This document shows, in pieces, positions 32,393 to 34,956 of a stretch of 64,000 bases of DNA (positions are counted from its first letter, which is position 1; every line of letters starts with the position of its first letter). Source of the stretch: an uncultured Candidatus Saccharibacteria bacterium (lineage in GTDB: Bacteria > Patescibacteriota > Minisyncoccia > UBA6257 > 2-01-FULL-56-20); the NCBI GenBank assembly GCA_964456235.1, contig CAYWDX010000001.1:125935-189934 (forward strand), in the 5' to 3' direction. The notes under the pieces are model-generated. The model was not told the origin of the DNA. It saw nothing but the letters and a program-made list of their open reading frames with translations, and ran no database searches. A program made the translations under genes and the position numbers.

Positions 32393-33178
32393 ATGAAGGA
32401 GACGAAGGTCCTGATGGGCATGCCCGTCACGGTGGAAATTGTTGATGCGCAAGCGGACGTGAACGACGGCCGAGGTGCGGAAGACGCGATTCGCGCCGTC
32501 TTCGATTATTTCAATTACATTGATGAGAAATTCAGCACCTATAAAGATGCGAGCGAAATTGTGGCGATCAACCGCGGCGAACTTCCGCCAGAACAATGGA
32601 GCGAGGATATGAAAACGGTTTTTATTCTTGCGGAAAAGACCAAGATGCTCACCGATGGCTACTTCGATATCAAGATGCCGGACGGCAAGTACGATCCTTC
32701 AGGCATCGTGAAGGGTTGGGCGGTGTGGAATGCATCAGACATCATCACGAAGGCCGGCTTCAAACATTTTTATGTTGACGCCGGCGGCGACATTCAAACG
32801 AGCGGCATGAACGCCGAAGGGGAAAAATGGGTGGTCCACATTAAGAATCCGTGGAATAACGATGAAACCATGAAGGTGGTCTGCCTTTCGGGCGAAGGCA
32901 TCGCGACATCTGGAACCCATATCCGCGGCGATCACATCTACAATCCCCGCACGGGCGCCAAGGCGAGTGAAATCGCGAGCTTGACCGTGATCGGTCCGAA
33001 TGTCTATGAAGCTGATCGATTTGCGACGGGCGCGTTCGCGATGGGCAATAACGCAATCAGTTACATCGAAAATTTGCGCGACATGGCAAGTTTCCCTCTC
33101 GAGGGATATGCGATCGACAACAAGAAGATTGTTACGATGACGAACGGCTTCGCGAAGTATGTGGCCGAAGCGTCGTGA
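32393..33178 (+). CDS. apbE: FAD:protein FMN transferase (ApbE family)
   Basis: ApbE pattern MGMPVTVEI..., SEI..IN, DPSGIVKGWA, DAGGDI, GIATSG. Confidence 0.85.
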   Translation: MKETKVLMGMPVTVEIVDAQADVNDGRGAEDAIRAVFDYFNYIDEKFSTYKDASEIVAINRGELPPEQWSEDMKTVFILAEKTKMLTDGYFDIKMPDGKYDPSGIVKGWAVWNASDIITKAGFKHFYVDAGGDIQTSGMNAEGEKWVVHIKNPWNNDETMKVVCLSGEGIATSGTHIRGDHIYNPRTGAKASEIASLTVIGPNVYEADRFATGAFAMGNNAISYIENLRDMASFPLEGYAIDNKKIVTMTNGFAKYVAEAS

Positions 33179-33668
33179 AATTTGCTGCCGGCTCCGCGGG
33201 AAGAATCCAATCGCCGAGCCATTTTAGAAAGGCTTCCCGCCGCGGCTCAAAAACAACTTCTTGAATGTGCATGCGCGGGTGCGCCTCGGGCGTGTATTCA
33301 TAGTGGCCGCGCAATTCGCCATCATCAAAAAGCCGCAAGTGGTATTGGTATTCCCATCCATCGAGGATGCGCAGGCTAAGCACTTCGCCATCGTCGCGCC
33401 ACGCGAAGAAATGATTGCCGAATCCTTTGTTCCCGATGTCCGTTAAGAATTTTTTAATATCCGCTCCTTCGCGCAGCCAGCCGAGCAAATATTCCTGCCG
33501 GCCAACGTGGTTCAACAAACCGACCTGCGAAAGCAGGTCACGAAAGAATGGGTTGAACGGCGAGTAAAGGCGCCAAAAGCCAAACTTGACACGATGCCAT
33601 GCGTCCCCCGTGAGAGGAATTTTTGATGCTGGAATCTTCGACTTGAGCTCTTCGGTAACCGCTTGCAT
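33132..33668 (-). CDS. Hypothetical protein (no recognisable domain), downstream partner of the ATP-grasp gene
   Basis: 178-aa ORF with TGaTATAAT 8 nt upstream of the ATG. Its 3' end overlaps the convergent apbE by 47 nt. W/Y/H-rich core (GWEYQYHLRLFDDGELRGHYEYTPEAHP). Confidence 0.55.
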   Translation of the reverse strand: MQAVTEELKSKIPASKIPLTGDAWHRVKFGFWRLYSPFNPFFRDLLSQVGLLNHVGRQEYLLGWLREGADIKKFLTDIGNKGFGNHFFAWRDDGEVLSLRILDGWEYQYHLRLFDDGELRGHYEYTPEAHPRMHIQEVVFEPRREAFLKWLGDWILPAEPAANFTTLRPHTSRSRSSS

Positions 33669-33712
33669 TAATCCTTATTATATCATCGCCGGCCGCCAAA
33701 AATCCAGCATTT

Positions 33713-34956
33713 TTATGCTGCGGCGTGATCAAATGCAATATCCCAAACTTTCCCGGCCACGTTCCGTGCGGGTCCATGATAGGGATAATGATGGAGATCA
33801 ATGAACGGCAGACTGTTGCATTCGATCACGCCGCAAACCTGTTCTTGCCACGGCTTCGCCATGTCTTCGATCATGAAGTCAACGCCGACGAGTGGGTCAT
33901 CGAGCACCTCGCCGATTTTTATGAACATCTTTTCGTTTTCGGGATGGATCATTGGAATTTCTGTTGTCGTCGCGCCGACGGCCCGGCTCACTTTTGGATG
34001 CAGTACCACCATCACTCCTTTTTTAGGGACGCTATTCAGCGAAAGATTTTGCTCCTTGAGCGTCGCGCGAACTTCATCGTCAACGACGATCATATGAAAA
34101 ATTGGCCCAGCGCGCAACGGATTTTTATTTTCATGCTCGATGAGCGTCTTGATGGCGTTGTTACCATCCCCCATCACATGCGGCGCCTCCCGCCGCATCA
34201 CGCCCACGATTTTCCCGCCGACCAGCGTGACGCGGAAGACAAAACCCGGGAGTTCCTGCTCCACGACGACGCGCGGGGAAATTTCTTTGGCTTTTTGAAA
34301 CGCCTTGGTGAGTTCGATCGCATTCGTAATGTGAAGATAGGTGTGGCGACTGCGCGACCCGAGCGTTGGCTTCACGATCGCGGCGGCTGGGGCGGCGGAT
34401 GGCGCAGCGGCCGGCCCCGGCGCGTTTTTAATTTTTATTTCATTAAAAATTTCTAAAGCCCCGGCGAGCGAGCGCTTCCGCCCTGCGGCACTGGGATCCC
34501 CGCCTTCTTAAATTTCGAAAGTATGATGCCCTTGTCATCCATCCAATTGAGCGCCGCTTCAGGGGCGTTCCGGGGACGCGGGAGACCGTCAAAGAAGCGC
34601 GTGTCGTCGCCGAGCGTCGCATAAAAAAGTTCGCGCGGGAGGCCGAAGGGGCGAAATTCCCGCATCAGAATCCCTCGGTGATTCGCTTCTTCCCGGAGCA
34701 CTCGCGCGCGCCAGGTATTTTCTTCATCGGGGTGCTCCATGATGCGGCCTAAGCCAAGGGCAGCCAGAATATTCAGGATTGACGGGGCCAGGCGGCCTGG
34801 TTCGAGCACGGCGATGAACGGGCGCACGGCTTGCCACAGGGCGTCGAGCGGCCGGCTGAAGTAATCAATAAAATAATCCAGCTCGATCGAAAGCCGCTCG
34901 GCGCGGTGCGAGACCGCGACCGGACCGCAATCAGCACATTCGATGCGCGCGTTCAT
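33713..34956 (-). pseudogene. Cyanophycin-synthetase-like / RimK-type ATP-grasp ligase split by a frameshift near 34470-34500
   Basis: The upstream fragment (34453-34956) ends ..DKGIILSKFKKAGIPVPQGGSARSPGL*. The adjacent frame continues ..SLAGALEIFNEIK..AAAIVKPTLGSRSRHTYLHI... into the downstream fragment (33713-34375). That fragment carries the rest of the fold (VVVEQELPGFVFRVTLVGGKIVGV..R, GVIECNSLPF). The shift lies in a CGCTCGCTCGCC repeat. Confidence 0.7.

Follow-up and report, generated by a model that had tools for sequence, protein, structure and literature searches.

A probable two-protein module of the candidate phyla radiation whose ATP-grasp ligase gene is split by a frameshift

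Within the 64,000-nucleotide (nt) stretch of an uncultured Candidatus Saccharibacteria genome analyzed here (contig CAYWDX010000001.1, positions 125,935 to 189,934; hereafter "the window"), a minus-strand gene group contains two adjacent open reading frames (ORFs) that are the halves of one ATP-grasp ligase, followed on the same strand by an intact gene for a 178-amino-acid (aa) protein that we named P178. Our interpretation, which we hold to be likely, is that the window carries one copy of a real two-protein module specific to the candidate phyla radiation (CPR) and that the ligase gene of this copy has been disrupted.

The first-pass annotation of this DNA had proposed that the two ORFs, at 34453-34956 and 33713-34375, were the N- and C-terminal parts of a single enzyme, and we found both the positions and the proposal to be correct. 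The N-terminal fragment (34453..34956, on the minus strand like the other features of this gene group) encodes 167 aa between an ATG at 34956 and a premature TAG at 34455-34453. The C-terminal part occupies the -1 frame (33713..34470), where homology begins at ..LAGALEIF..; the only start that can be called for it mechanically is a GTG at 34375. In a three-frame translation, the first frame runs through ..KKAGIPVPQGGSARSPGL to the stop codon, and the -1 frame reads ..SLAGALEIFNEIKIKNAPGPAAAPSAAPAAAIVKPTLGSRSRH... Joining the two yields a 415-aa protein with a single match, spanning the break, to the NCBIfam model for cyanophycin synthetase (TIGR02068, positions 207-473 of 862, E = 1.2e-51). 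Since the two fragments match positions 3-166 and 165-400 of the hidden Markov model (HMM) of the family, abutting at the break, no part of the protein is missing. The N-terminal fragment holds a CxxC..H motif, two long helices, a pre-ATP-grasp domain, and the WMDDK and GIPVP motifs, and the C-terminal part holds KPxxGSRSRH, the catalytic Arg243, Arg257, Asp361, Glu380/Asn382, and a PFIDLHH motif.

A database search returned 784 homologues of the joined protein, the best at 63% identity. The best 120 of the 784 are all single proteins, most of them 395-430 aa long, with a smaller part of the query covered where they are shorter; those with a source name come from Candidatus Paceibacterota. When one genome per species was scanned, 226 species had a relative of the ligase, and in all 84 related loci that we fetched (80 kept from the scan and 4 from contig look-ups), the gene is one intact ORF; none of these relatives carries it as two separate ORFs. 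Given that all of the listed homologues are single proteins and that 84 of 84 fetched loci are intact, the two ORFs in the window are halves of one ATP-grasp ligase and not a chance pattern.

The shift must lie between 34507 and 34456, and homology narrows it to ~34470-34460, an interval overlapping a tetranucleotide repeat of 2.75 units (CGCT CGCT CGC) at 34464..34474. The sequence at the break is aGC GCT CGC TCG CCG GGG CTT TAG, and adding one CGCT unit restores ..GGSARSLAGALEIF... The merged protein proved collinear with 35 homologues and later with 111, none of the 111 full-length homologues has a gap between WMDDK and IFNEI, and only a 4-nt repair fits. The frame translations, the ungapped homologues, and this repair thus bear out the earlier placement of the break in a short CGCT repeat. 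An added single nucleotide and a -1 slip on GGGG were both rejected as routes to the ancestral state since with either of them the protein would fall 1 aa short of every one of the 111 homologues. Slippage with loss of one tetranucleotide unit is the most economical history. About 50 nt from the frameshift lies a second slippage product of the same stretch, an in-frame 12-nt tandem repeat of 3.1 copies (34379..34415) that encodes the Ala/Pro-rich linker PAAAPSAAPAAA; the linker sits in a loop of the family whose length varies among homologues. With the 12-nt repeat so near the CGCT repeat, this stretch is therefore prone to slippage, and the frameshift is an ordinary event.

We then weighed whether the frameshift exists in the organism or only in its assembly. 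If it were a sequencing or assembly artefact, the organism would have an intact 415-aa ligase with three CGCT units and a working module, an outcome that we regard as unlikely. The ligase gene of the window is the sole split copy among more than 84 relatives, its break falls in a short repeat, and the ligase halves and P178 are conserved as well as they are in intact homologues, all of which an artefact would explain. Of 102 columns with conservation of 90% or more, the merged ligase departs from the family at just 3 (W88R, E235Q, and L394Y), which is within the range of intact homologues; beyond these three, the ligase has no signs of relaxed selection in the form of lost conserved residues or further lesions. 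P178 departs at 2 of 41 highly conserved columns. The lesion, if real, is therefore recent. On the other side, a Logan assembly contig (L001, run SRR12313479) is 100% identical to the source contig over 6140 nt (window 31366-37505), frameshift included, and a clean 4-nt deletion outside a homopolymer is atypical of short-read error. The other genes of the window are long intact ORFs, with no other broken genes seen in 64 kb, and the same gene bears other lineage-specific rearrangement marks (described below), which make a genuine lesion somewhat more likely than an assembly error. Several points count against our interpretation. The lack of decay suits an error as well as it does a recent mutation; both fragments and P178 were found only in one NCBI contig (323,180 nt) and in Logan run SRR12313479, which provides no population check; and the two assemblies probably share reads, such that a collapsed or miscalled repeat unit could be common to both. 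On balance, the lesion is probably real, being either recent or polymorphic, and less likely an error.

Searches with the joined protein placed the ligase near known enzymes but within none of their families. No Pfam model matched it. TIGR02068 scored 175.7 bits against a curated cut-off of 850, and the GshF model NF002688 (C-terminal profile positions 487-753, E = 2.6e-31) scored 108.8 bits against a cut-off of 425. The AlphaFold 2 (AF2) model of the ligase (pLDDT, 90.4; pTM, 0.87) matched 388 PDB chains in Foldseek at E ≤ 0.001, and the best 50 of the 388 are all ATP-grasp ligases (CphA1/2, GshF, LysX/ArgX, Ddl, RimK, and PsnB). At the top were CphA2 (7ta5, 1e-26) and CphA1 (7wae and 7wac, ~1e-25), then GshF (3ln7), with LysX/ArgX, Ddl, RimK, and PsnB lower at ~1e-9 to 1e-10. 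The family profile likewise retrieved CphA1, CphA2, and GshF from the PDB (E, 1e-51 to 1e-34), with the CphA1 G domain (residues 219-484) at 1e-51. The predicted fold thus places the ligase in the ATP-grasp superfamily. That the HMM and structure searches of the merged protein returned CphA1/2, GshF, Ddl, and RimK, and that NCBIfam, the PDB profile search, and Foldseek agreed on the CphA G domain as its closest known relative, with no Mur-ligase half, supports what the first-pass annotation had supposed from resemblance.

The best match by sequence and fold is the G domain of CphA1 (TIGR02068; 7wac, 7lg5, 7lgm, and 7lgn), with ~27% identity over ~335 residues. In contrast to CphA1, the ligase lacks the CphA N domain and the Mur-ligase M domain, ends at residue 415, is restricted to the CPR, and is paired with P178. 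CphA2 (7ta5 and 8fxh/8fxi), the top Foldseek match, is described in PMC10273328 as a CphA relative that uses G-domain chemistry only. It has an N domain and, in truncated form, an M domain, and it polymerizes beta-Asp-Arg dipeptides, whereas the ligase has neither domain and a different pocket. The second-closest family is the C-terminal ATP-grasp domain of GshF/GshAB (NF002688; 3ln7 and 3ln6; E of 1e-39 by profile and ~5e-24 by fold), which extends a small peptide by an amino acid at its C-terminal carboxylate; unlike GshF, the ligase has no glutamate-cysteine ligase domain, and its score lies under the cut-off. An invariant C-x2-C-x6-H motif (C7, C10, and H17) and two long helices in the first ~65 residues are unique to the ligase family. 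The ligase is thus a separate, CPR-restricted branch of the CphA/GshF ATP-grasp clade, neither a cyanophycin synthetase nor GshF. Our literature search found no description of a stand-alone CphA-G-like ligase in the CPR or of the P178 family; one paper in which cyanophycin and Parcubacteria both appear had no bearing on the ligase.

To place the active site, we mapped residues of TeCphA1 onto the family through a family profile alignment, with their roles taken from PMC9427784. In that text, K220 and K261 contact the ATP phosphates, R309 stabilizes the acyl-phosphate, R323 contacts the beta-carboxylate of the substrate Asp, and D431 and E450 are Mg ligands. Their counterparts in the family (K142 and K197, R243, R257, and D361 and E380, respectively) are all kept and invariant, as is N382, the counterpart of N452; in the 36 aligned sequences, K142, K197, R243, D361, E380, and N382 never vary. 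Four further positions are replaced. H267, assigned in the same text to the P-loop, is R203, inside the invariant motif G-S-R-S-R-H; N394, which contacts Asp from the large loop, is S325, next to an invariant R326; G456, of the oxyanion site, is F386; and R458, which binds the alpha-carboxylate of the incoming Asp, is D388, itself invariant. This alignment indicates that the residues for ATP, Mg, and the acyl-phosphate are kept and that the pocket for the incoming aspartate is altered, so the substrate would not be that of cyanophycin synthesis.

P178 is encoded by an intact ORF (33132..33668) and belongs to an uncharacterized family of proteins of 130-220 aa. A word search gave 60 homologues and an exhaustive profile search gave 241 representatives, most of them 100-220 aa long; the homologues with a source name are all called Candidatus Paceibacterota. 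The first-pass annotation saw no recognizable domain in this protein, and neither did we: Pfam gave no domain in P178 or its family members, NCBIfam gave no match, the profile search of the PDB came back empty, and Foldseek returned PDB matches only at E values of 0.5 or worse. A search with the PADLOC defense models also gave nothing. The invariant residues of the family include G63, R100, Q108, H110, R112, G121-H122-Y123-E124, E128, and H134. Its conserved polar residues (R57, Q58, N85, D92, R100, Q108, H110, R112, E118, R120, H122, E124, E128, and H134) alternate along three beta strands predicted in the AF2 model (pLDDT, 86.4). In this model, P178 folds as an alpha+beta domain, and invariant Arg, His, Glu, and Gln residues line its beta sheet. 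KA1 and TBP-like beta-alpha-beta-beta-beta-alpha domains and CYTH (triphosphate tunnel) proteins form a comparison set for it, with no significant match in the PDB.

The pairing of an ATP-grasp ligase with a small partner recalls LysX/ArgX with LysW and RimK with ribosomal protein S6, which share the common ATP-grasp fold. In those systems, the conserved acidic C terminus of the partner is the substrate. P178, in contrast, is merely appended to the ligase in fusion proteins, and its C termini vary in length and sequence, on which grounds we rejected a LysW-like carrier; P178 is unlikely to be a carrier of the LysW/S6 type.

The P178 gene lies just past the 3' end of the ligase gene in 66 of 80 species-representative loci. 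Tallied by gene family, it is the first gene on in 54 of 78 loci and the second in 11 of 72, and within two genes in 65 of 78. Upstream, by comparison, the best neighbor of the ligase reaches only 34 of 79 loci and is not the same in every clade: FMN_bind, ApbE, and an RnfD/FNR-like gene occur in one clade, and pilM/N/O and comF in a Nomurabacteria-type clade. The adjacency of ligase and P178 is thus conserved beyond the surrounding synteny. The two proteins also occur as fusions. In P0285 (553 aa), P0287 (561 aa), and P0303 (482 aa), which were found by P178 profile search, the ligase is N-terminal and P178 is C-terminal, and hhalign aligned residues 8-401 of P0287 with the ligase family (probability, 100; E = 6e-54). 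Clusters of fusion length number at least 25 and share 45-71% identity with P0287; one of them, seen on 9 contigs, bears the name Candidatus Uhrbacteria. The fusions keep the P178 core residues. These fusions are Rosetta-stone evidence for a physical or functional link between ligase and P178, and together with the adjacency, they bear out the earlier suggestion of a two-gene system.

That P178 is an unrelated neighbor, kept beside the ligase by conserved synteny in small CPR genomes, accordingly appears improbable: it is by far the most conserved neighbor of the ligase, the upstream genes vary by clade, and the fused clusters retain its core. A mere neighbor would be easier to reconcile with the convergent orientation and separate promoters of the two genes. 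In all 66 relatives having both genes, P178 is on the opposite strand from the ligase, so co-regulation is not implied. Co-transcription as an operon finds no support either, given this arrangement in the 66 relatives and the hairpin and -10 element that lie between the genes in the window. The earlier description of a ligase followed by its partner therefore holds in the window but not as a family trait, since the P178 genes of relatives are convergent rather than downstream on the same strand. Further, no P178 was found within 5 kb of the ligase in a more distant clade of unfused ligases, and the P178 domain is fused to other enzymes too: to a GT2 glycosyltransferase on two JGI contigs, and to MurB and a GT4 glycosyltransferase, each of these on a single contig of 1-1.6 kb. 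The link between ligase and P178 is thus strong but not universal.

Several features of the related loci are recorded here for their own sake. On at least three contigs, including one named Candidatus Uhrbacteria, the gene for the ligase-P178 fusion directly follows atpC (ATP-synthase epsilon; L092 8001-9707, L086 2588-4273, and L093 1815-3521); on L092, the rest of the F-type atp operon precedes the fusion gene and a UvrD/PD-(D/E)XK helicase-nuclease gene follows it. At the Nomurabacteria-type loci (L021-L085), a ComF-like phosphoribosyltransferase gene is usually ahead of the ligase on the same strand, with pilM/N/O-like genes divergent, and eight loci of this type have a gene for a HAD-family hydrolase between ligase and P178, on the P178 strand. 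In the distant unfused clade, the ligase of L095 (5001-7641) is followed by a 54-aa ORF and an MFS transporter gene with overlapping stops and starts, an arrangement that may point to export of a small product in this clade. In the clade nearest to the window (L002, L004, L013, and L014), the ligase is preceded by genes for an FMN_bind protein, ApbE (flavin transferase), and a 506-aa RnfD/NqrB-like membrane protein fused to an FNR-type NAD-binding domain. Of this set, the window keeps only ApbE at the locus (32393-33178, convergent with P178 and overlapping its 3' end); the presumed flavinylation targets are missing nearby.

Among the loci examined, only the window has ligase and P178 on the same strand. 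Relative to the nearest clade, the RnfD/FNR-like gene is gone and the ligase is found on the opposite side of P178, with a VOC/glyoxalase-family gene upstream of it. The last ~20 nt of the ligase coding sequence (..IAFDHAA) are a 19/20 inverted copy of an internal segment coding for CGVIECN, such that a 20-nt inverted repeat spans 33719..33835 (arms at 33719-33738 and 33816-33835, 19 of 20 positions complementary). The arms can pair as a long-range stem (RNA fold z-score, -3.5). This repeat is not present in 79 relatives, in which the best match is 9-14 of 20 positions, and no long repeats other than this one, at the ligase 3' end, were found that would explain the inversion of the ligase relative to P178. 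The repeat may be a template-switch scar of the rearrangement that placed the ligase on the strand of P178. With its strand change, window-specific inverted repeat, and expanded 12-nt repeat in the linker, the ligase locus of the window is in flux.

At 33705..33720, overlapping the stop codon of the ligase, is a terminator-like hairpin, CAGCATAAAAATGCTG, with a T run after it; the hairpin was also seen in the RNA fold. Between it and P178 lies a perfect extended -10 match, TGATATAAT, at 33677..33685, ending 8 nt before the ATG, as a putative promoter of P178 itself. Because of the hairpin at the ligase stop and the extended -10 before P178, ligase and P178 are probably separate transcripts even in the window. 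The -10 element is compatible with the earlier claim that P178 has its own leaderless-type promoter. A consensus promoter scan called no full -35/-10 at this element; judged from the sequence, a leaderless or near-leaderless start of P178 is plausible. In relatives, a start-proximal extended -10 precedes 33% of ligase genes, 23% of P178 genes, and 9% of other genes by crude start calls. We rejected a leaderless-type promoter as a P178-specific trait since ligase genes are preceded by such -10 elements no less often. Upstream of the ligase, the VOC/glyoxalase-family gene (34979..35392), with a promoter-like site at 35467-35439, has its stop 22 nt ahead of the ligase ATG; because of this short spacing, the two genes are probably co-transcribed in the window. 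A VOC gene upstream of the ligase was present in none of the related loci fetched.

For the ligase itself, loss of one CGCT unit by slippage would shift translation into the -1 frame after residue ~164 and end it at a stop 3 codons on. The C-terminal 60% of the protein would have only a GTG start with no evident ribosome-binding site, and a product begun there would omit an ATP-grasp helix. Since it would depend on such a start and lack this helix, the broken ligase is most likely inactive. It is very improbable that the break is instead bypassed, by a -1 slip on C-CGG-GGC before the stop, or used, with the repeat as a phase-variation switch for the ligase. A GGGG run does stand directly 5' of the stop, and tRNA-Gly could re-pair in the -1 frame to give a near-full-length protein, but such a product would lack 1 aa relative to each of the 111 homologues, the sequence contains no canonical X-XXY-YYZ heptamer, and the frameshift is not conserved, occurring in no relative among the listed proteins and the 84 fetched loci. 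A repeat-unit change is reversible in principle, but there are just 2.75 repeat units here. Known contingency loci have far more. A programmed +1 shift at the prfB-like CUU-UAG was rejected since the +1 frame meets stops at once. Least credible of all is a functional split enzyme with assembling subunits. The good conservation of the two fragments would suit it, as would a break close to a domain boundary, past the pre-ATP-grasp domain. However, the second ORF could start only at GTG 34375, which no Shine-Dalgarno-like sequence precedes, neither product would contain helix 165-178 of the model, and no relative is split in 84 loci.

An intact ligase, by homology, would use ATP and Mg to convert a carboxylate into an acyl-phosphate and then join it to an amine; amino-acid ligation by this enzyme is inferred only. 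The nucleophile is probably something other than a free alpha-amino acid bound through its carboxylate, and it may be cationic. Because P178 is a near-universal neighbor of the ligase and is fused to its C terminus in another CPR lineage, we infer that P178 would be an obligate accessory subunit, binding an anionic or phosphorylated ligand or supplying a second activity. The fusions of P178 to GT2, GT4, and MurB point weakly to cell-envelope precursor chemistry. We put forward only tentatively, and regard as doubtful, a more specific proposal in which ligase and P178 form a previously undescribed, CPR-restricted two-component system for amide formation, with P178, as a new fold, binding or acting on a phosphorylated nucleotide- or lipid-linked envelope precursor and the ligase attaching this precursor to a cationic amine or modifying it with one. 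If true, envelope biosynthesis in these ultra-small bacteria would include an unrecognized step of their own, one that this genome can do without or has lost recently.

Elsewhere in the window, a low-GC island at 21054-24700 (GC, 0.37-0.46, against ~0.54 elsewhere) lies beside a tRNA-Ser gene (20953-21042). Its genes code for an EcoRI-like adenine methyltransferase (PF13651, E = 1e-129), a GmrSD_N plus HNH endonuclease, and a helix-turn-helix (HTH) plus M78 (ImmA/IrrE-like) protein. Directly upstream of the HTH plus M78 gene, with a 4-nt overlap, is a 104-aa ORF that by appearance is a candidate HigB-type toxin. The island looks like a horizontally acquired restriction/defense and toxin-antitoxin cassette at a tRNA gene. 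At 25412-26814, two undecaprenyl-diphosphate phosphatase-type genes, BacA/UppP (PF02673) and a PAP2 phosphatase, stand side by side with a one-base overlap. An Rfam search of the whole window gave tRNAs only; ARAGORN called a tRNA-Ser(GGA) at 36818-36905 for which Rfam gave no tRNA match at the gathering threshold.

For annotation, the only respect in which the frameshift is relevant, a single gene entry marked as disrupted should replace the two ORFs, and the names "cyanophycin synthetase" and "D-Ala-D-Ala ligase" are both unsuited to it. The module is an uncharacterized, CPR-specific variant of a known enzyme class, and a moderate lead rather than a major surprise. For expression, the fused Uhrbacteria protein and intact pairs from Paceibacterota are ready targets, and the change from Arg to Asp in the nucleophile pocket supplies a concrete, testable hypothesis. 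The presence of a broken ligase gene beside an intact P178 suggests that some lineages do not strictly require the ligase. For all their tiny genomes, the CPR (Patescibacteria) keep this well-conserved ATP-grasp ligase in at least 226 species-level genomes, tied as a neighbor and as a fusion to P178, a domain with no match in the PDB. Lineage-specific enzymes that are conserved, as this one is, offer one of the few ways into the special biochemistry of the uncultivated CPR.

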